From assembly GCA_004022145.1 (NCBI GenBank), contig RCNU01000003.1: 64,000 nucleotides of DNA. One strand, written 5' to 3'. Made by a program: the position numbers and the translations under genes. Each line of letters opens with the position of its first letter. Positions within the stretch are counted from its first letter, which is position 1. The notes beneath the pieces were generated by a model, which made no database searches, was not told the origin of the DNA, and saw only the letters and a list, made by a program, of their open reading frames with translations. Positions 8,078-26,414 of this stretch are shown piece after piece. The DNA is from Paecilomyces variotii. Taxonomy: Eukaryota.

Positions 8078-9044
8078 CTCGAAATTGCTCCAATGGAGAT
8101 ACTGCTAATGGGAACCGAAAACTGATATGAAGAAAAATGTCGCTTTCCTCTGCTTGACTCCAATGTCAGGTGAAGAAAACTCCTTCGAAGCACCTATATA
8201 GTCCGGCATATTGGTGGCTCTTCCAACGAGACAAAAATCTCAAGACGTCACGACCCTACAAGACTAGTTGAGGTCCAATGTACTGTACCTACAGGACAAG
8301 CAGAGATCATGCACGTAGCCCTGGTCAATCCCCCGCAAAATTGCTCTACTATGTCACTGGGATATTACTGAATGCTGGGTGTATGTCTCGGAACGTCCGT
8401 TTCTAGAGTTGACTCCAGATTCCATGTGCAAAGAAACAGAATTGATAGGTCGAGGGTTACCTTGGATATAAGTTAGGACCGTTCTCGACTCGAGTCGTTC
8501 AAACGCCACAGGCATGGGTTGGAGATATGTCGCATCCCCGATGATGTTCATGATGCCGTGTTGGCCCATGGTTCAAAGGCGTTTTTCTTCAGCCATAACC
8601 AGGAGCTCCTGCGGAGACATACTGGTATCTCTGCCTTATACTTCTTCCACTTCTATCGTGGTATGTAAAACTCTAACCGTCTAATCCTTACCAGTTCATG
8701 ATCCAACCTCGCAAGTGTGCCCGGAAGCGGTGATATATTCCTCTCTGAAGGTCGAAAGAATAAACCATATAGCTGGTACTCAGTAAGCCACAGACTGCGT
8801 CGATTAACCATTCGAGCAGTCTACCGAAGAAATATTGCCGGAATAGCACTGCGTTCCATGGATGATGACCATCCAGTGGCAGCATGGACGAGTCATGGTT
8901 AGCATTGCAGTCACCAGTCCAAAAAGAGTCCGTATGGTTCAAACACACGAAGATAACATATTCCTGCGACATTCAAAGGCAGTGACATATAAGACACAGG
9001 ACTATGGTGAGATGTTCTTCTTCTTAAGATGGATCAAAAGCGAT

Positions 9045-9142
9045 TGTGGTCTTTTCTTATGTCATCTAGCTTAGTCATTCTCTACTATATAGCCTTAGGC
9101 ACAGATATCTCTTAGTAATTAACTTTTTTCTTCTGAATAATA
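9045..9142 (+). repeat. 5' LTR of outer element (98 bp)
   Basis: Aligns gap-free with 25029-25126, with 11 differences, all transitions. Confidence 0.95.
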
Positions 9143-9599
9143 TCTAGTAGTATATCTAAATATCTAGATTAGGTAATAATAAGGGGATTATATAAGCCTA
9201 GAAGGCTATAGCCTAAATAGGCTAATATTATTATATTATAATATTAATAATTATAATAATTATTATATTACTATATATAAAAAAGCTTAAAATATAATAT
9301 TAAATATAAAAGATACTATTTATTTAATAATATAGCAGTTAGCTATAATAATAATAATATAATAATATATATAATATTAAGAAAACTTAAATTTAGATAA
9401 TAATAACTTAAACTTTATCTTATAACTTTTTATTTATACTAAATTAAGTAAATATAAAATATTTCTAAACCTAATCTTACTGCTATACTTAGGAAAAAAA
9501 AAACAAAGATAAAGAATTATATTAAAATTTAATTTATAATAATATATTAGCTATAAAGGGTAAATAATAGAATATAAATATACCTTTATTATAAAAAAA

Positions 9600-11117
9600 A
9601 CTAAGATAAATATTTAATAATTACTTTAATAATTAAAATCTTAAATAACTATAATAACTATAATAGAAGACTTAGTTAATTATATTAGCTATATAGACCT
9701 AAATAAAAATAACTAATTAATATTAGGTATTAAAATATTTAATTTAAGATAACCTCTTTTAACTTTAGAATAAGCTATAAATATTATAATACTAAACTTA
9801 TTATAACTAAATCTTAATTTATTAAGTCTCTTAGCTTAAATTACTAATAATATTATTAATATTATTTAGGTATAAATAATATAAATAATAGGCCTTAATA
9901 ATAGACTTAGATTTAAGCTTAAAACCCCTTTTTTATATAAGAGTAAATATAATATAGAACTTTTAAAAGTTTAAAAGTTTAAAATTTATAATTATATTTA
10001 ATAATATAATACTAAAGACTAGTTTAAGAATTAATAAGAAATTATATAATATTATATTAAATTTTTAAGAGGTAATATAAGATTAATATAAGAAACTTAA
10101 TCTAATAATATTAAGATAAGAAGAGCTATAGAGTTTAATATCTTAGATAATTAGTTATAGTAGATCTTAATATTATATAAAAATATTAATTAAAAAGTAT
10201 ATAACTATAATAAATATTATTAATTAATATAAATATATTTTATTATAAAATATACTATTAAATTACTTATATTATAATAATAATTTAACTCTCTTCTATT
10301 AAATTATAAACTTAAGGAATACTTTATTTAAAGATTAAAAACCTATATTTATAATTATATAGAAGAAAATCTAGACTATAATAACCTTAATTATATAGAT
10401 TATATTATAATAGCTAATAGATTTAATCAGTAATATATAGCTATATATATATATAATACCCGCTAATACTTAAAGTAATAATCTTAATAATTATATACTA
10501 TAAGCGGTAAATAAAAGTTATTAATAATTAAGCTAATACTAGATTAATTATAATAATAAGTATAGTTATAATACTTATCTTATTCTTTTAAAATAATATT
10601 ACTAAAAAATACTCTATAAAAGAATATTTTAGAATAGACTAACTATTATTAGAAGAATTACCTTTATTTCTAATATAATTATATAAGATATTAAACTTAT
10701 AATTATAATAAAAAAAGATATTTCTTTAATTAAAATTATTAACTAAGATAATAATTATCTTATATAATAAAGTTAATATTTTATTTTTTAAACCTATATT
10801 ATTATAGTTATAATAACTTAAAAAATAGTTAATATTAATCTTATAATTACTCTAATAGTAAGATTAAATTTCTTAGTCTAATACTGCCTCGCTATCGCGT
10901 TTTCTTTAATATACTAAATAAAAACCGCTAATATATTATAGCTATTTTATAACTATTTAAATAAGACTAATTTTATATAGAAAATTCTAGACAATATATT
11001 ATAATAATTAAAGCCTATAAAATTAATAAATAATAAAGCTATCTAGATAAATATCTCTACTTACTCTTAGGAAAAGTTATAAAAACTATAGGGGGTAAGT
11101 TTCTATTTAAAACTTAA
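9600..11117 (+). pseudogene. RIP-degenerate gag of outer element (approximate bounds, interrupted by inner element)
   Basis: Purine-rich sense strand, position between LTR and protease, and a gag-like de-RIP reading around 9900-10090. Confidence 0.55.
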
Positions 11118-11262
11118 TGTTATAGATATAGGCCTGCTCTAGCTATACCGCCCGCATAGCGAGGCAGTACTATATCGCCTTTAATATACTTAGTAGTAAT
11201 ATCTCCTAGTTAGAAGAATTAACCTTTTTATATCTTTATTTTACTATAGCTATACTATTATA
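11118..11262 (+). repeat. 5' LTR of inner element (145 bp)
   Basis: Aligns gap-free with 19385-19529, with ~24 differences, all transitions. Confidence 0.95.
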
Positions 11263-11284
11263 AATAGTAGTATATTTTAATTAA

Positions 11285-12120
11285 TTAGAGTATTCTTTAT
11301 TATCTTTATTTTAAGCTTTAAGACTTTAAGATTATTAGACTTTAATTAACTAAGCCTATTATCTCGCATAGAGTACTATATAAATAATAAAGACTACTCT
11401 AATATTACTATAGTACTATAAGTCTATATTTAATCTTACTCTCTCTATTTAATAATATTTACCTATAATTTTACTATAAGCTATCTCTATAGCCTTTTAG
11501 CTTATTATATTTTAATAGAATTAATCTAGTTTTAAAGACTAGTTTCTTTAATCTATTCTATTTCTTATTAATTTTATTATTTTATTTTATTTAGCTCTAT
11601 AGAGTCTAATCTTAACTGCTAATTATCTTAGTATTACTATAATTATATTAAGGGGCAGTATTACTCTATATATAAGATCTTTTACCTTCCCCGCTAACTA
11701 AATAATTAACTAAAGCACTTTAAACTAAGCTATAAGCAGCTTTTATAGAGTAATAAAGGCATTAGCTAATAACTCTATTTTCTTATTCTAATAATAGGAA
11801 TAAAAGGTATTCTTAAAAAAAGAAGTAATATAAAAATTAATTAATTTATTAAGCTATAGCTACTTTAAGATATTATTATTATATTTAATATAAGTAAGAG
11901 TCTCCTTTAACCTTTAAGGAAATACCTTAGCATTCTTAAACTAAGAATATTTTATACCTAAATATCTTATAAATATCTCTAATATTTTCTTAGACTTTTC
12001 TAAGATATAGTTAAGATTACTATATATAGGAATTAACTTTTACCCTTTAATTTTTAATATAGGTTAATTGCCTTTAAGTAATAAGACTAATCTAAGTAAT
12101 AATATTATAATTAATTAATA
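11285..12120 (-). pseudogene. Putative RIP-degenerate antisense accessory ORF between the 5' LTR and gag of the inner element
   Basis: The minus strand is purine-rich here. One minus frame has ~12 stops per 160 codons versus ~22 in an adjacent frame (hand count 11581-12060), and surviving G is biased to codon position 1. Confidence 0.5.
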
Positions 12121-12239
12121 ATAGGATAAAGAAATAAGTAGTATAAAAGATAAAAGACTTATATATAATATAATATTACTATTAGTTAAAGGTAGAGATA
12201 TAAATAATAATATTAAGGCTAGACTATTAATTAATATTA

Positions 12240-15200
12240 ACTTATCTAATATTAATACTAATATATTTATTATAGAAATAATAAGGGCGATAATTAAGTT
12301 TAATAAGATAATATAAAGACTCTTTTAGCAGCTTAATAAATAAAGAGAGCTATAATTAAATAAAAATTACGCTAACTTAAATAATAATATTATAAGTAAT
12401 ATTATAGCTATATTAATAAATATATATTTAAATAGCGTATTATTATAGAAGTAAGAGGAACTTAAGTTCTTTTAACTAAACCTTAAGAATTATAAATATA
12501 TTAGCTTAGGGCTAATTATTACTATAGATAGTTAAATATTTTATAAGAATATTTATCTATTTATAGAGTATATTTAAGATCTTATATTAATTAAGGGTAA
12601 AGAATAGATCTGGCTAAGGCTTTATATATTTTTTAAGGGATAAGCATTTTAATAATATATAGCGGAGCTCTTTAATTTTAAATAAAATAGCCTATAAGTA
12701 CGCCTTATAAAAGAGGTATAGATTTTACTATTAATAAAGTATTTTAAAATTAATACTAGTATAACTATATAGACTAGAAAGAATATTATACTTAATAATT
12801 AATATTAAGAATAGGGTTATATTATAGAGCTTTATATAAATAGTTATCTAGCTGCATAAAGTAATAAGCCTAAATATAATATATATATAGCTCTACTTAG
12901 CTTAGATAAAATTTTCTCTATATATATAAAAGGATCTTATTTACCCTAATAAGAATATATTACTAATACAGTTTATAGAATTAATAAATAAGGCCTATAT
13001 AATATAATAAGACTAGGCTAATTTAAAGAATTATTAATAACTAGCGCTATTATAGAATTAGTATAGTAATTATAGATATAGCAATTTAAGCTATTAGTAG
13101 TTATTACTATACTAGGCATATTAATATAGTAATTAAAGATAACCTAATAATCTAATACTATAACTATAGTAACCTTAAAACATAAGACTAATAGCTAATA
13201 TTCCCTAGAATTAAATAAAACAATTTATTAATAGAGGAGGTAGAAGAGGTAAATTCTCTATACTCTTTTAATTATTACTCGCACAGAATTATAACTAGTT
13301 TAACCTAGGGAATATTATCTAGTAAATACTCCTATAGAACTGTAATATAAATTTATAGCTATTTATGCTAAATTATAATTAAATAACCCTAAATAATATT
13401 ACTCTATAGCGAGCATATAATATATATATTAATAATAACTTAGAAGAATTAAGAGTAGAAGAGCTATAATTAATTATATAATCTGTATTTACCCTAATAA
13501 ATAATAAAAATAAGGGTTTTTTTACAGATAGATTTTACTAAGAGATCTATTATATAGAATATAGAGATATAAGAGTAAATAGCTATATTAGGTCAGATAA
13601 AGAAGTCTAATACTTTAAAGATTTAGGGGACTATATAAAGAATTATAGCGCTAACTACTTCGCCTATTATATTTAATTAAAGGTCCCTATCTATAAATAT
13701 TATATATATTCTTATAAATTTAAGTTAAATAATAATCTATACTAATACTTTTATAATATATAATTTAAGTATAATAATATAAAGGAGAAGCTAAAGATAC
13801 CCTTAGTATATAGAGAAGATATACTATAAATAGTATAGTTAATAGCACTAATATAACCCTAGATAAGTATAGGAAATTACTTTAGGGGATAGTATTATAT
13901 TAGAATAAAGGCTTATATAATAGACTTTTAAAAACATATTACTATCTGTTTAAATAATAATTATTCTATAACTATTATTAATAGATAATTTCTTTAATAA
14001 TAAGCTTTATATATACTATTATTAAATACCTTAAAGATTATTATCTAAGAGATTAGTAATATAGCCCTACTCTCTAGCTAGTTTACTTAACTTTTACTTA
14101 ACTTTTTAACTATCCTTAATAGCTAAAAGGTTAGGGCTAGAATTAATATAAAGGCGCACCTTATTAATAGCTTAAGAATAAATATTCTCTTAAATAATAA
14201 TATCCTTATACTTTAAGGGTTTATACTTAATATAGGTAATAGAACTGCTATTATTAATACCTGCTAAAGTATAATTATTCTGATAAAAATTATTATAAAA
14301 CTAGAGCATTATATACTTTAACCTATTTATTTAGCCTAGCAGATAATAATACTATTAAGATTTAATATATAACTACCTATTATAATAAAAAAAAAATTAG
14401 TTAATAATAGAGACTATCTTTTTAACTTATGCTATAATTATATCGCGCTCTTTATATATATAGTTAACGCTAATATAATATTTATTTAAGCCTCTAATTT
14501 TTTAGAGCAATTATAGGCTATCTTATAAAAGATATAATTAGAAATACTTAGTAAGTTAAATAATATAAATATTTTACTAATTAACTTTATAATAATATTA
14601 CTTATAAAATCTCTATAGAAAGGCTATAAAAAACTGACCTTAAAAATAGTATATAAGCTAAGCCTAAAATAAGTTATAGTAAAAGGTATTACTATTTATA
14701 AAAATAAAGATATTATTAATTAGCTATAGTAAATTATTAAATTATATAATATATAAGATAACTATAGCTTTACTAATATATTAAAAGATTAATAGATATA
14801 AATACTATTAAAGAAAGATTAAGAAACTTAGCTCTTATATTAATTTAAGGTTTACTTATTAAAACTAGTAGATTAAAAGGTTATAAATAATATTTTTAAT
14901 AAACTTTATAATTTAGGCTATATAAAATAGGCTAATAGCTATATACTTACTAAATATTTAATCTTTATTATTTAGAAAATAGTAAAAAAGAATAGCTAAT
15001 AGATATAAAAAGGGTATATAATAGTAGATATTTATGCATTAAACTAAGAAATAGAACCTAATATCTATTTTATTCTGCTATAAGATAAAATTCTAGTAAT
15101 AATAATAAGAAAGCCCTTTATTTCTATTTATAACACGATTTTATTCTTCTATTAATAAAGAGTATTCTTACTCTATTAGTTATAATTAGTAGTAGTAAAT

Positions 15201-17870
15201 TATTAAGGTTAAGAGGTTTTTAATATAGCTATAATAGGATTTTATAATATGCTTATTTATATTTAATAAATTATAGACTATTATTTATAGAAGTTTTAAA
15301 AGTTTATTTATATTTATATAAATAATCTAGTTATAGTATTAAAGATATTAAATAATTATAAGTAATACTTATATATACTCTTTTCTATAATATAGAAGCT
15401 TAATATTACTCTAAATCTTAAAAAGTTCTTTATTAAGTTTCTCTTAGTAACGCTGCTAAGTTATTAGGTTAATACCTTTAATATAGTTAACCTAGAGGAG
15501 AAGATAAAGGCTATAATAAACCTATCTTTCCCTACTATATTAAAAGACCTTAAATATTTTTTTACTCTTATAAAATAGTTCCGCTAATATATTTTAGAAT
15601 ATATAATTATTATAGATCTCTTATAAGACTATAAGATATTATTATTATACCTTAATCCTACTAAGAGAAAGCTATATTAGAAATTTATAACTAATACTTA
15701 AATAAACCTCTTAATTAAATAAGAGTTATAGTTATTTTAAAAAATTAAATAATATTTCTAGGATTTATTCTTTTTAGCCTACTTCTTACTAAAAAGACTA
15801 TTTTATATTAACCTTAATATAGCAGGTAGATTTAGGGTAAATATATTAAAATATAATCTTAGTATAATAGTATACTATTTATATAATAAAGTATTAGCAG
15901 ATAAATATTATCTTTTAGCAGCTAGCTTATTAGCTAAGGTAATATTAAGTAAATTAAAGGTGCAGCTAATTCTATTCCTGTTAAAATAATTAAACTTAAT
16001 AAAAATAAAATACTAGCTAATAAAGTTAGAGGTTATATATTTAATATAAATACTTAAGAAGATATACTATCTTATTAAAGCGTTAAGGTTAACTATTATA
16101 GTATTTATAGATTATAATATTACCCTAGCTATAGCTAAGTAGATTATACTAAAATCTAGTTTAATAAAGTAAATAAATTTATATCTAGTCTTTATAGCGC
16201 AATATATTTAATAATTTAACTTAAATCTTATTTATAAGCCCGGTAAAATTAATATAGTATTAAATATATTATCGCAGTTACTATTAGCTATAATAAAGCT
16301 ATATACCCCTTTACTAGAAGATATTAAAGATATAAATATCTTTATTACTAATATTAATAATAAGGCGAATATTTATTATATCTCCCTAGTTAAAATAAGC
16401 CTTAAGTTTAAAAAAAAATTAGTAAGAAGCTATTAAACAGACTCTAAGTAAAATAAAATCTTAAATAACCTATAAAATAAATTAAAGGTAATATTACTAT
16501 ATAAAATAGAAGATAGTCTTTTATACTTAGTTAATAGGTATAATAAATATTAATACCTATATATTCTATAATTAGTAATCTTAGAGATATTATAGCTTAC
16601 TTATAATTAGCTTAACTACCTTAAAATAAATAAGATATTAAATAGATTAAATAGCTTAGCTATTTATAAAATATTTAAGCTAATATAAGACTATATTATC
16701 TACTACCTTAAATATATAGTAAATTAAATATAATAATATTAGCCCTTTAGGTCTATATAGCTTATTATAATATTACTAATCTTATTTAATATATTAACTA
16801 TTAATTTTATTATAGGCTTACTTAAGACTAAGAATAGCTTTAATTAAGCTATATTAATAATATATAAGTTTACTAAGAGAATAATATTTATTCTAGGAAA
16901 AGCTACTTAAATAGCAGCTAATTAGGCAGTAGCCCTACTAAAATATCTATATATTAAGAACTAGGGTTTATTACAGAAAATTATCTCTAATAAAGACTTT
17001 AAATTTCTATTTAATTTATAGAAGGAACTTTTTAAATATCTAAATATTTAGCTATTATTTTCTATAATATTTTATCTATAAATAGATAGGTAATTAAAGC
17101 GAATAAACTAATAAGTAGAAATAACTCTTAAGTATTTTTTTAATATACTAAATATCTCTATAAATTAGCTTTTAGTATTATTATAGCTTTAGGAAGCTTT
17201 TAATAGTAATAAAAGTATATTTATAGGGCATATACTATATTAGCTAATATATAGTATTAAATTACTTATATTTATAGACCTTATATATAATATAAAATTA
17301 AAATAAAGCTTTATATATAGAATTAATATAAGAGAAGCTATAAAAATAGCAGTTATATCGGCTAAGTAATACTATAACTAGTAATATCTCTATATTACCT
17401 TTACGCCTAGTAACTAAGTCTATTTATACCTTTATAAAGGCTATTTAATACTGGTAATAAAGGTATTAGAAAGAAAGCTCTTATAATAATATATTAGACT
17501 ATTTAAGATAATTTAATATATAAGAAAACTAGTATATAAGCTAAAGCTACTACTATATTAAAGAGTATATAATATATTTTTAATAATATACTTAGAGCTA
17601 GCCCTGCTAGAGGATAACCCCTTTAATAAATAGTTATAACTACCGCTAGCACTATATATAGAAGAAGATAATATAAGAACTTATAAAATTAAGAAGTTTA
17701 TAAATAAGTATATTTAATATTATTACTAATATATTATAATAAAATACTTAATTTAATAAAAGAGCTAAGGATTAGAATATAATATATAGTATAATATTAA
17801 TAATCTCAGAGATATACTAGAGCTAATAAAAGAATATAAAGATAAAGTTATTAATAATTCTTTATATTTA
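12240..17870 (+). pseudogene. RIP-degenerate gag-pol of inner element (approximate bounds)
   Basis: Recognisable de-RIPed gag, PR, RT, IN and chromodomain motifs in gypsy order. Confidence 0.8.
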
Positions 17871-18316
17871 CTATTAGAAGAAGAGTTAGTATATTTAGCC
17901 TATATTAGCAATACTTTACTTATTTTATCCTTATATTATATCTATAGCTAACTCTAGTAAAATATTAGCTTAACTTCTCTTATTTAATATAAACTACTAC
18001 TTATTTTATATTATTATTAAATATTAATATATTAATAAATATCTTTATACCTAATAATAAAGATAAAGGCTATATTATTATTATATAATTAAGTATATAG
18101 TTAATAGAATAACTTACCCTATAAAAGAGATTAAAACTTTACTATAATATTTAAATAAAAGAAATATTATAAGACTATAAGGCTAAATAGAAATAATAGT
18201 TCTTAGACTTAATAAGATACTTAATATTAATATATTTAATATATGCTACTATAGTAATGCTAATATAGTTAAATAATATTCTAGAATTTTATTAGTAGAT
18301 TAAAGCATATTATTAA

Positions 18317-19320
18317 TATATCTTTAAAAAAGAATATTGCTATATTATAATAATAGAAGAACTTAATATTAATAAAAATCCTATAATTAAAGATTTAAAT
18401 TTAAGCTTTAATAATAGTATTAGTAAAAATCTTATAAATAAAGACTTAGATCTAAGCCCTAGCAATAGCCTTAATATTTACTCGCCTTAATTAATATAGC
18501 CCCTAACTATTAACTTAATATTAGAGAGTAATACTGATAATTTAATAGCAAAGAATAATATTAATAACTTAATAGATAATGCAAGCGCTAATAAAGAGAG
18601 AGAATAAATAAAAGGATAATATTTATAGAGATACTTAAATAAATAAAAATAGCCTAGTATAAATAATAAAAAATAATTTAGGAACTTATAACCCTAGAGG
18701 TAAGGTAACTTAATAGTTATTAAGGTAATATAGAATTGCTAAAATAATATAATCTATATAGGTAAATATTAGGTGTTTTTATAATTAAAATTATACTTTA
18801 TCTTTATAGCTATTATACTTATTTAGGAATTAAGCTCTAGGCGCCTAATTCTCTTAAAGCTAAAAAATCTGCTTATAGCTGCTATAAGAGTCTTAATAGA
18901 TATAATAAGAGAAAGGTTTTTAAGAAAAAGATAATAGCTTTACTAGAAAGAGCTATTAATCTTATTATATATAATAATTTTACTAGACTTACTATAGTAA
19001 TAAGAAAACTAATTTTATTATTTAATAGATAAGAATTATTAACTAGTTAAATATAATAATATTATTTTTTTCCCTTAGTATTATATATACAATAGCCTTA
19101 TTAACCTTATTAAATAGCTTTATTAAGGCTTCCTTAAAAGCTATTAGGCCCAGTTAAATATCTATTAATATAAATATTAACAATAAAAATAATAATAAAG
19201 AGTATAAGAATAGCTAGTTTTTTAGCAGAATAAATCTATAATTAGTATAATATAGCCTATTAAAACTATAAAAAAAGATATTATAAAGCTTTTAAATAAG
19301 GCCTTTTTAAATAAAGAGTA
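18317..19320 (+). pseudogene. Putative RIP-degenerate sense ORF3 downstream of inner pol, possibly with one intron (18700-18761)
   Basis: A 57-codon stop-free run at 18317-18487 (de-RIPs to D/E/S-rich sequence) and a ~63-codon stop-free run at 18841-19029 in another frame. A GTAAGG...GCTAA...TAG intron joins the two frames. Confidence 0.45.
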
Positions 19321-19384
19321 AGATAGCTATAATTATATCTAATTATAGTATAAATACTATTTCTTTTCTTAAAAAGAGAGTATC

Positions 19385-19529
19385 TATTATAAATATAGGC
19401 CTACTTTAGCTATATTACCTATATAGCGGGGTAATATTATATTACCTTTAGTATACTTAGTAGTAATATCTCTTAGTTAGAAGAATTAACTTTTTTATAT
19501 CCCTATTTTACTACAGCTACGCTATTATA
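19385..19529 (+). repeat. 3' LTR of inner element (145 bp)
   Basis: Direct repeat of 11118-11262, followed by the TSD CTTAA. Confidence 0.95.
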
Positions 19530-19534
19530 CTTAA

Positions 19535-22500
19535 TATCTTATATATTATTTAATTAACTTAGGTATTAATATAGTATATGCCTTAGTTAGATTTTATAAG
19601 ATAGCTAATATTCCTATTAATATAATTAAATAATTAAAGATATAACTTATAAATAGTTTAGCTATAATTATTTATAATACTGCAATAATACTCTTATAGT
19701 TAAATATATATTATATAGAATTATTTATATAAATAGTTAACCTTAATAATTTTAATATTATTTTAAATATAATATAGCTTTAGTCTATAAATTTAAAAAT
19801 TAATTAGGAAATAATATAAATTATAATTAATAATTATAATAGTTTAATATATTATTTAAGCTCTATCTTATAATATATAATAACTTATAATCTAGTTAAA
19901 AATATTAATAGTACCCTTATCTCTTATAATAAAGCTAAATATCTCTTTAAAAAAGATATTAAATTATAACTTTATATTATATAATAATTTAATAATATAA
20001 TAGATACTCTATCTATAATAAAATAAAAAGATATATTATTAGAAATTATAGCTATATTATAATAATTTAAATATTATTTTTAAGAAAAATTATTTAATAT
20101 AATTTTATTATTATAGCTAGGTAGTAATTATAAAATTAATATATAAGATGCTTAACTAATTAATATTAATATATATCTATTATTACCTTTATATAAGGAT
20201 AAAAAAGTATAATAAGTTAATAACCTTTATATTAAAAGAATTATTTATAAATTAGCCTTTAAAGTTTCTTAGCCTTATTTATAAAAAAACTAGATAAAAA
20301 ATAGAGAATATATATTAATTATTAAACTCTTAATATAGTTACTAAATATAATAAATATCTATTATTAAAAATCTAAGAATATTTTAATTAACTCTATAAT
20401 GCAGAAATTCTTAATAAATTAAATCTTATATAAGGTTACTATTAAATCTAGATTAAAGAAGAAGATATTCTAAAAATAGTATTTAATATATATTAAGAAA
20501 AATTTAAATTTATTATAATATTATTTAGATTAGCTAATATTCTAGCTATTTTTTAAGCCTTAATAAATAGGATTTTATATCTATATCTTAATAAATTTAT
20601 AATTATTTATTTTAATAATATTATAGTTTTCTCTCTAATATTAGAGGAGTATATTTATTACTTATCTATAGTTTTATAAGTCTTATCTAATAATTAATTA
20701 TTTATAAAGCTATTTAAATATATTTTTATAAAGCTATAATTAGAATTTTATAGATATAATATAGGCGGAGAGATAGTTTAGCTAATATAGTTAAAGATAA
20801 AGATTATTAAAGAATAGCTAATACCTATTAATATTTATAAGATTTACTAGTTCTTAAGATTAATATAATATTATTAATATTATATTAAGAATTTTATTAA
20901 TATTATTATACTCTTATTAGACCTTTTAAAAGAAAGCAATATATAATTATATAAATAGAAATATTATAGGATTAAATAGACAGTATAATATTAATATATA
21001 TTTAAATAATTAAAAAAAAGTATTATTAGTAAACCTATTCTCTAATTATTAAATATCTTTAAACTATTTATTTTTAAAATAAATACTAGCAATTAAGCAA
21101 TTAGTTATAATTTACTATAAAAAGATATAACTATAAAAGGCTTATATTTAATTACTTTTAAAGGTTATAAATTAATAATTTATAAAAAAAATTACTTAAT
21201 ATATAAAAAAGAATTGCTAGTAATTAAATATACTCTTATAATTTAATATATATATCTTAATAATAGATATAAGATTATAGTCCTTATTAATTATAAAAAT
21301 CTTAAATATATATAAATAATAAAAACTCTATTAAAACAATTAATATAATAATTAATAGATTTTTAAGATTATAATCTTAATATTAAATATTACCTAAGTA
21401 GTTAAACTATTATCCTAGATATAATATTATAATACCCTAACTTTATATTAGAAGAGAAAAAAGCAATATAATATATTATTAACTCTCTTATAATTAGATA
21501 AAATAAGGTAGAATAATATAATATAATAGTTACTATATTTAATAATAAAATAATATTGCTATAATACTTATAATCTATAATTAATAAGAAAAAGAATAAG
21601 TTTATATTTAATATAGAAGAATTCTTATAATATTATAATAGTAATAATAATATTCTCTATCTTTATTTATTCTTTTATAATAATTTCTTAGAAGAAATAT
21701 ATATAGATTATAGATACCTTAGATATTTAGCTTTATTTAAAGTTATATAACCTTATATATAGTAGCTAATAATATAGAAAGATATATAATACTTTATATA
21801 ATATTATCCTAAATATTAGGTAGTATAATAAATATAGCTAGGCCTTAAATATAAGATATTATAAACTTTTACTAGTTATAATATCTAATTATTTAATTAT
21901 TAGGTAATTAATCTTATTAGTATTTTATTAACTATATTAAACTATAATAAATAGATTATTACTATAATTAAATATATAATAAGATAGCTAGTTATAGAAG
22001 TATTATTAAATATAAAAAATAAAATAATTATAAAGTTTATCTATAATTATATCTTTATTAATTATAGAGCTTTATAGGAACTATTATTTAATAATAGCTC
22101 TAATTTCCTTTCTTAAATAATTATCTATTACTTAAAGATTATTAGTATATATTATTAGTATATTATATTATATTACTTAAAAACTAATAGTAAGATTAAG
22201 AATTATAATAATCTATTAGATAATATATTAATTAAAATACTTATTAATAAGCCTATCTATTTATAGGATAAATATCTTTTATAAGCAATCTTTATAATAT
22301 ATATTAGATTATACTAGACTATAAGGTATAGCTTCTTTTATCTCCTATATAAATATTATTTAATATTACTCTTTAATAATAATCTACTATATTTATTAGA
22401 GATTATAAATATAATTAAAGTATATAAAAAATAAATTGCTATATTATAATATACTTAGCTTATAGCTAATAGAAGATTATTAAAAAAAATAATATAAGTA

Positions 22501-23415
22501 TTATAAGTTTATTATAATAATATTATTAAGTCTTTTTTTAAATTTAATAAATAGGTACTTATTTATAATAAAGTATATTAAAAATTTAAAAGATATTAAT
22601 TTAAATTATATAAAATCCTTATAGCTTATTTTCTTAAAATATATTATTTAGCTAACTATAATAGCAATATTTTATAATATCTTATTAATAGAAATTAATT
22701 AATTCTAGTATATATATTTAATAATATAGTTTTATAATCTTAATTAACTCTAAAATAATAAATAGAATTATGCAAATTATATAATATTATTATAATCTTA
22801 CTAGAGGTAAATATTATTATTAATATAGAAGAATTACTATCTTTAATTTATAATAAACTTAATATAATAATATTAATAAAATGGCGGAGATTATATTAAG
22901 AAGCTATCTTATATTAAATATAAGAATAGCTATAAGAGAATTATCTTATATTATAATTATAACTAATTAATAAAACAGATAATAGTATTATATATAATAT
23001 AATAACTATTAAAAATTAAATATTAATAAAAGATTAAAATATTTTAAATAGACCTATTAATAAGCTAAATAAAGAACTTTTAATATCTATACTATTAATA
23101 TCTATAGTAAATATATTACTAAAGATTATTATTAGAATATTAATAATAAATAAATAGGATAATAGTAATAAAGAAATAGTAAATATATAGAAGCTAAAAA
23201 ATCTAATTATAGAGAATAATAACTATCTTAAGAATTTAAGATTAATAGATTTAATAATTATAACTAAGCTATTACTAATAGTGCTAATTAAATTTATTAA
23301 ATTATTATTATCTTATAATATTAATATCTATAACTTATAGTATAGGCTAAAATTAATTACTAACCCTTACTTTATTATATTTCCTCTTTAATAATATTAA
23401 AAGTAAAAGAATTAG
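19535..23415 (+). pseudogene. RIP-degenerate pol (PR-RT-RH-IN, long C-terminal tail, no obvious chromodomain) of outer element
   Basis: De-RIPed motifs LIDSG, WRMCVDY, YLDD, TDAS, IDLIG, YHPxTNG and WFGPY. The stop-poor frame continues to ~23410. Confidence 0.8.
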
Positions 23416-23649
23416 TTAAAAGTATAACTATTATAAAATTCTATTTAACTATAAATTCTATTAATAGTTAGGCTATTATATTATAATATTAATATTATCC
23501 CTAAAAACCTATAGAAACTACTATAAAGTATTATCTTAAAAAATATTTTAGTAAAATAAAAATAGAAATTTCTTAGAACTATAGATTTTTATTTATTATT
23601 AATATTAATAAATTATTACTCTTATTTTTATTACTCTTTAAACTCTCTA

Positions 23650-24750
23650 TATTATAATTATTAATATATAATAGAAATAAGCAGTTATTATATATTATCT
23701 TTATCTTTTATATTATTTTTTATAGTAAGACTATTATTATAATAATTAATATCTTTCTCTCTTTTAATAGTTATTATTATATTATTCTTATTCTCTTTAA
23801 ATATTATAATATTTTTATCCTATTTATAAATCTAATTAAAGATAAATTTTATTTTTTTCCTATTTTTCTCTAAAAATAAAATATATATAACTTCCTTATT
23901 TATCTAAGTCTAATATACTTTATTTAAAACGCGATTATCTAGAATAGTATATATATATCTAGTTATTATATTACAGAGAGTAATAATAATATTTAAAAGA
24001 TTAACTATTAATAATAATTTATTATAAGGCTTATATACTTATTTATAATCTAATATAATATATAAAAAATATAGATAATATTGCGCAGACTATAAAGAAA
24101 GAGAATAACTAAAAATAAGCTATATTTAGATAGATTATTATAATATTTCTATTATTAAAATAAATCTTTTAATTATATTTTTATAAGTATATTTATTTAT
24201 AGATATTATAATATTATTATAGAAATGTTTATATTTATTATTAATAGGTTTATCTTTATTAGATTTTATCTCTAATTTTTTAGAAGAAGAATTTTAAGCA
24301 ATTATATTATAAATAATATTAACTATATAATTAGTATAATTTAAGAAGGGGAAGGAATAATATAATAATTTACCTAAGAAATATTAGCCTTATTTTAAGA
24401 AATAAATATAATTTATATATATATTATTTATAACTCTAAGAACTAAAATATAATAATATAGCCTAAGGGCTATTTTTAGACTATAATATTTTACTTTATC
24501 TTTATTTTAATATATATTAATTATTTTTAAATTATTATATTAATTATAGGCTATAATTATTAATAATATCTGCGATATTATAATATATATTTATAAGGTT
24601 TATTAATAATATCCTTTATATATATAAGAATATTATTCTAGTATATTTCTTAAAAAATATTATTATATTATAAGACTATAATTTTATTATACTAATACTG
24701 CTTTAACTATTATATATTTTAAAAAGATAATAAACTTCTCTTAATTTAAG
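23650..24750 (-). pseudogene. Putative RIP-degenerate antisense, spliced accessory gene in the 3' region of the outer element
   Basis: One minus frame has ~11 stops per 220 codons from 24360 to 23700, with acidic tracts. A 51-nt intron-like segment at 24374-24424 has ATATAT (from GTATGT)...GCTAAT...TAG. Confidence 0.55.
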
Positions 24751-25028
24751 TAAATATAATATTAGCTAAGAGTATAAGATTTAGATCTAAAATAATAATA
24801 TCTCTATAATAAGATATTATAGAATTATAAAATTATAAAAATATATTTATATTTAAAACTACTATAAAGAAATAATAGAATAATTAATTTATTACCTATA
24901 AAAAGGAGTAATAAATATATAAAAAGAATTATATAGTGAAGTCTATAACCTTATATAACTTTATACCTTAAGCTAATGCGCTAGCCTAGTTATATTAAAC
25001 CTGATTAGCTCATTTAAAGAGGGGAGGA

Positions 25029-25126
25029 TATAGTCTTTTCTTATATTATTTAGCTTAGTTATTCTCTACTATATAGCCTTAGGCATAGATATCTCTTAGT
25101 AATCAACTTTCTTCTTCTGAACAACA
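25029..25126 (+). repeat. 3' LTR of outer element (98 bp)
   Basis: Direct repeat of 9045-9142, preceded by the PPT, ending in CA and followed by the TSD CGAT. Confidence 0.95.
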
Positions 25127-25400
25127 CGATGATGGCCCGTCCGCACGTGGTCGGCTGGGCCTGCCGACCGCAGAGCTTCACCTCGGCTCGCCCTTCCCCG
25201 TCGCCGACCCCGCCGACAAGCATAATATGAACGGAGATGCGCACCGCGACAGAATCCACGGTTAGTGAGTGAGCACTCCAGCGACTATTTTTCAGAGCTC
25301 GAATTCAAGTTTACTCGTTCGCAATGTCTATCCTCTATCAACAATCAAATCCTGTTGTCGCGCAACGCATTGAGAAATCTGGAAGTTGTGAGCCGTGACA

Positions 25401-26414
25401 ATGCCCGGCGAGGTCGAACGAGGTAGTCTTAATAATGGCTCCGGCAATGCTTCAGCTTACCCCAAAACTGCTTTGAACACAGTCCGTGTCTACAAGCAAA
25501 GAGGTAAGCAGATGAAAACAGCAGTTACTCAAGCTTAGGAGCTAACCCTCTATAAAGGCCACTACGATTACCGCACCGTGCACTCCATCCTCGCCTCGAC
25601 CTTCGTTTCGCACGTTTCCTTTATCATCAAAGATGAAGAGGGCGAACCGATACCGATGAACCTGCCACTGACGGCCGTTCTAGGTCGTTATGACCCAAAC
25701 AATCCATTACCAGAGGATGACGGGGACGAGGAACAATATATGCACCAGCAGGAATCAATGACCGATGGGCCGGCGGATCTCTATCTACACGGCAACGCAG
25801 CATCCTTATTGTGTAAAGCCATCAAGGAGAATGGCTCTGTACGCGTCTGCATCAGTTCCACCAAAGGTACTATCACCTATCCTTGACAACCAGCTTCCGG
25901 AGCAAACAGCTGACTCGACCGCCCAGTCGATGGAGTTGTTATGTTTTTCACTCCAAACGGACATTCATTAAACTATCGCTCAGTCGTCGTTCACGGCGAT
26001 GCGGAGCTTGTGTCGAGCCTCGAAGAACGCCGCTATGCTATGCATCTGCTCACCAATCACATGGTACGGCGACGCTGGTCAGGCACGAACCCCGTGTCCC
26101 CCTCGGCCGTTAAAAGCGTGCAAGTAATGCGCGTAAAGATTCGTAGTGCATCTGCCAAGGTTCGTGCATCGAACATAGGCAGCTTTGAACCAAGAGAAAT
26201 GGGTACTCGACAGGATGTCTGGACGGGTGTCGTGCCCTTGTATGAAGTCCTCGGGACACCAGTCAGCAGTGGCGGCTTTCCGGAGCGTGAAGTGCAAGAA
26301 CATCTGGAGGATTGGCGGTCAACAAGGAATGAAGCCGAGAAGAGTTATGCGGAGAGAGTGGCGATTCCGTCTGATGTGGAATTAAGCTCATGGCAGAAAG
26401 TCACGTCTGAATGA
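25401..26414 (+). CDS. Flavin-nucleotide-binding PNPOx-like protein (NimA/5-nitroimidazole-resistance-like), 2 introns
   Basis: YPKTALNTVRVYKQRG|HYDYRTVHSIL, LYLHGNAAS, HSLNYRSVVVHG, SASAKVR and VWTGVVP motifs. ATG at 25401. Confidence 0.85.

Follow-up and report, generated by a model that had tools for sequence, protein, structure and literature searches.

A probable antisense gene, inactivated by repeat-induced point mutation, between pol and the 3' LTR of a Ty3/gypsy retrotransposon of Paecilomyces variotii

Introduction

Antisense open reading frames (ORFs) between pol and the 3' long terminal repeat (LTR) are established in several plant Ty3/gypsy lineages, according to PMC7264820 and PMC11963269. 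This plant class, referred to as aORF-3R, includes gene23 of maize Grande and ORFs of rice RIRE2 and Silene Retand, as well as ORFs with a TRP28 domain from the Retand lineage (PMC7264820, PMC11963269), and the Grande gene23 protein is described as nuclear (PMC7264820). Among fungi, the antisense ORFs that published sources place between pol and the 3' LTR are those of Boty in Botrytis cinerea and Sclerotinia (PMC7264820, PMC11963269, PMC8365987), and the antisense gene of Boty (BcGypsy1) in B. cinerea is called brtn (PMC7264820, PMC8365987, PMC4227169). Two of these sources also mention retroviral antisense genes, namely HBZ of human T-cell leukaemia virus type 1 (HTLV-1) and ASP of human immunodeficiency virus type 1 (HIV-1) (PMC7264820, PMC11963269). 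Here, we describe a stretch of 64,000 nucleotides (nt) of the genome of Paecilomyces variotii (assembly GCA_004022145.1, contig RCNU01000003.1; the window, hereafter), in which a Ty3/gypsy LTR retrotransposon probably carries an extra gene of this kind, in a copy that repeat-induced point mutation (RIP) has destroyed.

The P. variotii ORF resembles the plant aORF-3R in its position and orientation and in encoding a protein without clear database relatives. They are also alike in that an own promoter and a regulatory, possibly nuclear, role are proposed for both. However, the plant regions measure 2.9-6.6 kb and often contain tandem arrays, whereas the P. variotii region measures 1.6 kb and contains weak short repeats. 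Unlike the Retand-lineage ORFs, the P. variotii protein has no TRP28 or other Pfam domain. Compared to Boty, the P. variotii element resides in another fungal class and probably encodes another protein; moreover, the P. variotii copy is RIP-dead and its LTRs are only 98 nt long. No Botrytis protein was among the matches of our protein searches, which is weak evidence against homology to brtn. HBZ of HTLV-1 is spliced, and the antisense gene of HTLV is driven from the 3' LTR. The likeness of the P. variotii ORF to HBZ and ASP lies in position, as an antisense gene near the 3' end, and no splicing was shown in P. variotii. Boty and its antisense gene brtn are reportedly the subject of a paper by Zhao et al. 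from 2011 (Virology 417:248).

In P. variotii itself, RIPed AT-rich regions have been attributed to an intact 7,091-bp 'Tf2-type' retrotransposon, Tn123 of strain CBS 144490 (Urquhart et al. 2018, PMC6300479). The word 'antisense' occurs 0 times in that genome paper (PMC6300479). Tn123 comes from the same species as the un-RIPed relatives that are described below, and the element studied here, minus a nested insert, is ~7.6 kb long; this comparison is one of size and description. Our search of the fungal literature for antisense retrotransposon genes found Boty as the only case.

Results

Un-mutated relatives of an antisense frame between pol and the 3' LTR

To identify relatives of the 1.6-kb stretch between pol and the 3' LTR of the outer element, we masked the stops in one of its minus-strand frames (24506-23691, 272 residues) and searched 1.84 billion representative proteins with phmmer, reporting matches with E <= 0.001. 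This yielded a single match (E 3.3e-9, 53.4 bits), a protein of 173 amino acids named hypothetical protein of P. variotii (P0001). Related hypothetical proteins of 143-152 amino acids are annotated in several P. variotii strains (P0002-P0004). Both P0001 and P0002-P0004 are open frames in un-mutated form. BLASTP aligned 102 residues of the window frame to P0001 without gaps.

For the aligned residues, we tested whether each window codon can arise from any codon of the residue opposite via C>T/G>A changes alone, i.e., whether it is RIP-reachable. This was the case for 84 of the 102 codons opposite P0001 residues 23-124 (residue shuffles 22.7±4.0, maximum 38, with 0/5000 reaching the observed value) and for 72 of the 88 codons opposite P0003 residues 31-118 (shuffles 18.4±3.7, 0/5000). 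The window stops are found where RIP can create them: all four stops opposite P0001 fall on Q, W, R and Q, and seven of the eight opposite P0003 fall on Q, R or W. When a 62-residue core was compared to both strands of the 64 kb (~128,000 positions), one site reached 58/62, with its first base at 24020 on the minus strand, whereas the runner-up reached 24. The four core positions that RIP does not explain are all conservative replacements (L/I, I/L, I/V and Q/K). A frame rebuilt from the residues of the relatives contains no unavoidable stop and one possible stop in 151 codons. As the codons are RIP-reachable, the stops fall on Q, W and R, and the core has a unique site, these codon-level comparisons show that the stretch descends, through RIP, from DNA that coded for a protein almost identical to P0001-P0004.

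A first-pass annotation of this DNA, made by a model from the letters alone, had proposed an antisense protein-coding frame after pol, and the un-mutated relatives and the reachability of their codons bear this out. The annotation had also read an acidic tract from this frame after reversal of the RIP changes. This tract has its counterpart in the N/D/G/S/E-rich tail of P0001 (residues ~90-148).

The protein family appears to be an orphan in the databases that were searched. P0001 and P0002 have no Pfam family. Pfam likewise found no match in the six frames of 23400-25030, which is a weak test, since the reverse transcriptase and integrase of the same pol also escape Pfam. No wider relatives of P0001 were found in a 'longer' search or in two metagenome scans. 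Look-alikes of the protein in the Atlas all scored below 0.9, with low Atlas recognition (2119), and the best match in a sequence search of the PDB had an E of 0.58. An AlphaFold2 model of P0001, made from a four-sequence alignment, had a mean predicted local distance difference test (pLDDT) score of 38.3, which is too poor for fold comparison.

Coding signals of the minus frame

The number of stops differs strongly between the frames of this region. The three minus-strand frames of 24360-23700 contain 41, 11 and 28 stops over 220, 220 and 219 codons, respectively, and the three plus frames of 23700-24360 contain 16, 18 and 31. This exact recount reproduces the 11 stops per ~220 codons that had been reported for one minus frame, and in 23761-23820 this low frame is free of stops while the other minus frames contain 5 and 4, also as reported. 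A comparison to shuffled sequence, a check that the first-pass annotation had itself set, shows that the depletion is moderately significant: any of the six frames had <=11 stops in 10 of 3000 dinucleotide-preserving shuffles of 23700-24360. A 220-codon window that low occurred anywhere in the shuffled 1.63 kb of 23400-25028 in 22 of 1000 shuffles. By itself, the stop depletion is ambiguous. The low minus frame is in the same TA phase as pol, another plus frame is its exact complement in phase, and similar counts (10-17) are found opposite genuine pol. The shared TA phase suggested that pol might run on through the stretch; this was ruled out by the stops at 23389-23452 and by the minus-strand homology.

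Two measures that are proof against RIP give stronger signals. RIP transitions leave the periodicity of purines and pyrimidines unchanged, and its period-3 power is 8.45 in 23690-24510 compared to 0.93±0.91 in shuffled sequence (0/1000 reach the observed value). A codon likelihood was built from the host ORFs of the window passed through a fitted RIP model. It places the minus frame 29.6 nats over the worst frame (shuffles 10.6±4.1, maximum 25.1, 0/2000) and 15.6 nats over the in-phase plus frame. The verified control for this likelihood is the outer pol alone; the frames of the nested element were dropped, as Pfam has no matches there.

Extent and layout of the remnant

The antisense remnant extends over ~24269-23531 on the minus strand and comprises ~245 codons. 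It contains one frameshift and 12 in-frame stops, of which the first frame accounts for 10 and the second for 2. The full 245-codon frame was assembled by inference from two partial relatives. Its main part (23715..24269, minus strand, first base coordinate mod 3 = 2) is defined by the mapping of P0001 residues 23-124 at 24020-23715 and of P0003 residues 31-118 at 24167-23904. The match to P0003 residues 12-30, at 24218-24162, is shifted by two codons against that of the other residues; in that register, 19/30 codons are reachable for residues 1-30 and 13/15 for residues 16-30. The ATA at 24269 may once have been an ATG, and the frame has a TAA at 24296.

The main part is followed by a low-complexity N/D/G/S/K-like tract (23650..23715, minus strand), in which the frame changes relative to P0001, as seen from 12-residue P0001 words that switch frame. 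The window is ~34 nt longer than P0001 here, and weak 3-nt and 34-nt repeats are found nearby. The C-terminal part (23534..23680, minus strand) continues in the frame with first base coordinate mod 3 = 1. There, P0001 residues 149-173 map at 23608-23534 with 22/25 codons RIP-reachable (background 4.4±2.1), and residues 125-173 reach 31/49. A TAA stop (23531..23533, minus strand) directly follows the final P0001 residue, at the same stop position as in P0001.

The remnant and pol are thus convergent (tail to tail), with their stops ~140 nt apart. Located between the pol stop (~23389) and the 3' LTR (25029) on the opposite strand, the ORF has the position that defines aORF-3R. The remnant joins the N-terminal part of P0002-P0004 to the long C-terminal part and stop that are known only from P0001, so it descends from the most complete form seen. 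From N- to C-terminus, the protein would have a basic N-terminus like that of P0003, a core of ~65 residues that is conserved, a polar/acidic tract rich in N/D/G/S/E and a hydrophobic C-terminal motif that is also conserved. With low confidence, the core is predicted to form a helix and a small sheet of three short strands. In this window, the gene is certainly non-functional.

Two differences between the relatives were observed along the way. In the core, TRYIHAILDGRIPDKVYQTW of P0001 and TRCVRAILDGRVPNEVYQTW of P0003 differ at six positions, five of which have G in P0003 and A in P0001, and the window retains a G-containing Val codon opposite an Ile of P0001. P0001 itself may come from a lightly RIPed copy. 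P0001 also lacks ~26 residues, from a DNLxR-like motif to the core, that are found in P0002-P0004 and in the window. Either these residues were deleted in P0001, or the gene predictor took their codons for an intron in that strain.

A proposed intron upstream of the mapped residues

The accessory gene had originally been proposed to contain an intron of 51 nt (24374..24424, minus strand). While the antisense coding remnant stands, the intron is unsupported and lies upstream of all mapped residues, >=105 nt (i.e., at least that far) upstream of both the possible start and the most upstream mapped residue (24218-24269). The strings on which it was based do exist, as the minus strand reads ATATAT...GCTAAT...TAG, with in-frame stops at 24392 and 24386. 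However, sets of a donor-like string, RCTRAY and YAG occur at chance frequency, ~2 per kb per strand: in the AT-rich block of 15.9 kb, the minus strand has 29 such donor starts and the plus strand 32. As 51 is a multiple of 3, removal of the segment leaves the frame unchanged, and since the mapped part has 12 more stops, for which RIP accounts, the two stops within the segment need no special cause. Over the mapped region 23534-24251, only a 2-codon indel and the one frameshift in the low-complexity tract interrupt the colinearity with the proteins; as far as this alignment can tell, the mapped coding part is unspliced.

It is thus highly improbable that a spliced gene uses this segment to join an upstream exon to the mapped part. 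In favour of such a gene, 28 codons without a stop precede the segment in the minus frame (24425-24508), with a faint positive likelihood of +1.4 nats in 24480-24569, and the start assigned to the ORF is tentative. Given the ~26 residues that P0001 is short of, splicing may also apply to some gene model of the family. Against this, the likelihood of the minus frame is -0.2 nats in 24390-24479, and the mapped residues of P0001-P0004 all lie downstream of 24374-24424. The N-termini of P0001 and P0004, scanned over 23900/24100-25028, gave background scores only, with best values of 12/24 and 10/22 in differing places and frames. An antisense intron would survive retrotransposition, which is a sound general point, but this locus provides no case of it.

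The carrier element and its locus

The window contains an AT-rich block (~9000-25100) of 13-22% G+C, surrounded by DNA of ~50% G+C. The block is an insertion of 16.1 kb, consisting of the outer Ty3/gypsy LTR retrotransposon (9045-25126) and a second element nested inside it. The 5' LTR (9045..9142, plus strand, 98 nt) starts with TGTGG, and its terminal CA is now TA; the 3' LTR (25029..25126, plus strand, 98 nt) reads TATAG...AACAACA. All differences between the two are transitions, and their similarity ends exactly at both borders. The sequence also contains a target-site duplication CGAT (left 9041..9044, right 25127-25130) and a polypurine tract, AAAGAGGGGAGGA (25016..25028, plus strand), that abuts the 3' LTR. 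Direct terminal repeats with TG..CA ends, a short target duplication and a polypurine tract next to the 3' LTR are expected of LTR retrotransposons, and together these features identify the carrier as a plus-strand LTR retrotransposon.

In 19500-25030, the plus frames had one Pfam domain, which is RNase H-like and belongs to the outer pol (21001..21270, plus strand, frame coordinate mod 3 = 1; PF17919 RT_RNaseH_2, E 1.8e-07). It corresponds to residues 501-590 of the translation starting at 19501 and scores 31.5 bits compared to the Pfam cut-off of 29.8. This domain anchors the strand and frame of the outer pol, whereas the reverse transcriptase and integrase are undetectable, having been erased by RIP. 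With stops masked, pol had two weak matches, one with E 7.4e-7 over 25% of the query and one with E 3.1e-6 over 34%, both Ty3/gypsy polyproteins with RVT_1, RNase H and rve. The end of pol is marked by a cluster of nine stops in the pol frame (23389..23452, plus strand, frame coordinate mod 3 = 1), preceded by a single stop at 23338. This cluster and the 3' LTR start at 25029 agree with the pol end and LTR limits given in the first-pass annotation.

The composition of the block has a RIP pattern, with CpA and TpG at 3.1 per kb each compared to TpA at 247 per kb. RIP weakens toward the outer LTR edges, as G/C is kept in the first half of the 5' LTR and the last half of the 3' LTR, which indicates that mutation tails off where the repeated unit ends. 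At 98 nt, the outer LTRs are short for Ty3/gypsy.

The nested element of ~8.4 kb (11118..19560, plus strand) is bordered by LTR-like direct repeats of ~175 nt (~11118-11290 and ~19387-19560) that are 83% alike over 150 nt. Its orientation is inferred from the codon likelihood alone, and Pfam finds no domain in its putative frames. It has a coding-like codon signal on the plus strand, including 1.2 kb (~18050-19270) in another frame before the right repeat. To the right of the outer element lies a flanking gene (25144-25600), for which RNA contigs were found in two runs and which has a 54-nt GT..AG intron (25502-25555). As the first RNA-covered base, 25144, is only 18 nt past the end of the 3' LTR, the element sits in the 5' region of this gene.

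Association of the ORF with the element

In this copy, pol, the ORF, the polypurine tract and the LTR follow each other in that order, all inside the borders of the target duplication. The stretch is RIPed as heavily as pol, with 11-17% G+C in each 150-nt block of 23300-24949, which implies that the stretch itself was repeated. A genome run with the same organism label contained a second, diverged copy of 23774-24420, which over 647 nt differs at 75 positions and has 2 gaps, so that at least two copies are present in this assembly. In the contigs of that run, 553 of the 584 differences tallied over 20400-25600 are transitions, and the summed contig depths of the stretch and of pol are of the same order. 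Within the stretch, we found no terminal repeats, target duplication or second LTR set that would mark a separate insertion. A Retand-like tandem-repeat region was rejected as well, as the stretch contains only low-scoring short arrays.

Of the four runs that were compared, the two of RNA, or guessed to be RNA, cover only the flanking gene from 25144 and contain no contig from the AT-rich block, which is not evidence of silence. A separate, large run with another organism label (X6) contains many short contigs that are identical or near-identical to parts of the element in 20400-25100, with a word share of 0.40; the element or the organism is present in that sample too.

Discussion

We consider it probable, at about three in four, that the outer Ty3/gypsy element carries an extra gene on the opposite strand between pol (~23389) and the polypurine tract (25016), and that this gene is dead here. 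The stops in this copy would have been made from Gln, Trp and Arg codons through C>T/G>A changes. The encoded protein would represent an orphan family that so far consists only of P. variotii hypothetical proteins. In intact copies, the gene may be transcribed from its own promoter in the ~750 nt between the ORF start and the 3' LTR or, alternatively, from the LTR reading inward. By analogy with other antisense ORFs between pol and the 3' LTR, its product could be an accessory, probably nuclear, factor of the element, and the layout of the protein is what might be expected of a small nuclear adaptor or regulator.

Several observations weigh against an element-borne gene. Regarding the protein, P0001-P0004 are gene predictions called 'hypothetical protein', for which no transcript or peptide evidence was seen, and a long non-coding open frame would give an equally good alignment of the same DNA. 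As the protein has no known domain or solved relative and its fold model is poor, its function is a guess. The N-terminus is also uncertain: colinear mapping fails for the initial 11 residues of P0003 and ~15 of P0001, and the window has an AAA codon where P0003 has Met, which makes the start of the ORF tentative. Strand assignment by codon likelihood is weak on the outer pol itself, where it gains +11.8 nats across 962 codons and ranges from about -3 to +9 in single windows, and the unavoidable ancestral stops in the plus frames (0, 0 and 3) are not decisive on strand. Finally, only two copies of the stretch were found in a single assembly of short contigs, none of which joins it to pol (one weak joint has a side of 21 nt), and P0001-P0004 were compared apart from any gag-pol context, which leaves room for a captured host gene.

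Such a capture would make the ORF a piece of a host gene, the single-copy locus of P0002-P0004, carried by one sublineage and without a role in the life cycle of the element. P0002 and P0003 are identical across several P. variotii strains, lie on contigs of up to 587,710 nt and have a normal amino-acid composition, which fits a single-copy locus that escaped RIP, and transduction has been described as a source of extra ORFs (PMC7264820). However, the form borne by the element is the most complete, and P0002-P0004 look like a truncated derivative of it. The stretch is moreover repeated and fully RIPed, and our searches found no relatives beyond P. variotii that would reveal a host gene family. 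We therefore regard host capture as unlikely. An unrelated mobile element or fragment, inserted in reverse between pol and the LTR of an ancestor, is less probable still. Nesting does occur at this locus, as exemplified by the inner element (11118-19560), and no contig seen joins the stretch to pol in another copy. On the other hand, the stretch has none of the marks of a separate insertion and no transposase or reverse-transcriptase signal in six frames, and the ORF stop lies close to the pol stop, with the polypurine tract and LTR in their normal order.

The ancestral frame could also have been open but untranslated, with P0001-P0004 over-predicted on a 3' region or an antisense RNA that does not code for protein. 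All four proteins are 'hypothetical' and without a Pfam family, the AlphaFold2 and Atlas scores are low, and a plus-strand frame could likewise have been open. In contrast, ~245 open codons are unlikely to arise by chance at normal composition, and the period-3 and codon-likelihood signals match those of pol windows in strength. In addition, just 4 of the 62 core positions changed beyond RIP, all of them conservatively. An untranslated frame thus seems about as unlikely as a captured host gene, and we favour an antisense gene that belongs to the element.

A wider scenario is more tentative and, in our view, doubtful as a whole. In this scenario, a Eurotiales lineage of Ty3/gypsy elements, whose 98-nt LTRs are unusually short, would encode its own antisense accessory protein of a new family, basic at its N-terminus, folded in a small core and acidic in its low-complexity tail. 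The gene would be intact in some P. variotii strains (P0001), with a truncated single-copy derivative fixed in the host genome (P0002-P0004), and its protein would act in the nucleus on element expression or host silencing.

Antisense extra genes are well documented in LTR retrotransposons of plants. The P. variotii element is another case of this known class of antisense ORFs, with an orphan protein, and the hypothetical proteins P0001-P0004 of P. variotii are probably derived from transposons. Our analysis also illustrates that coding remnants can be recovered at 13% G+C via C>T/G>A codon reachability, where Pfam saw nothing. P. variotii can be transformed and crossed (PMC6300479). If the gene is real, it would be the second fungal case after brtn of Boty. 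Such a second family in fungi, from a species where RIP is active and both transformation and crosses are possible, would offer a tractable system for finding out what such genes do.

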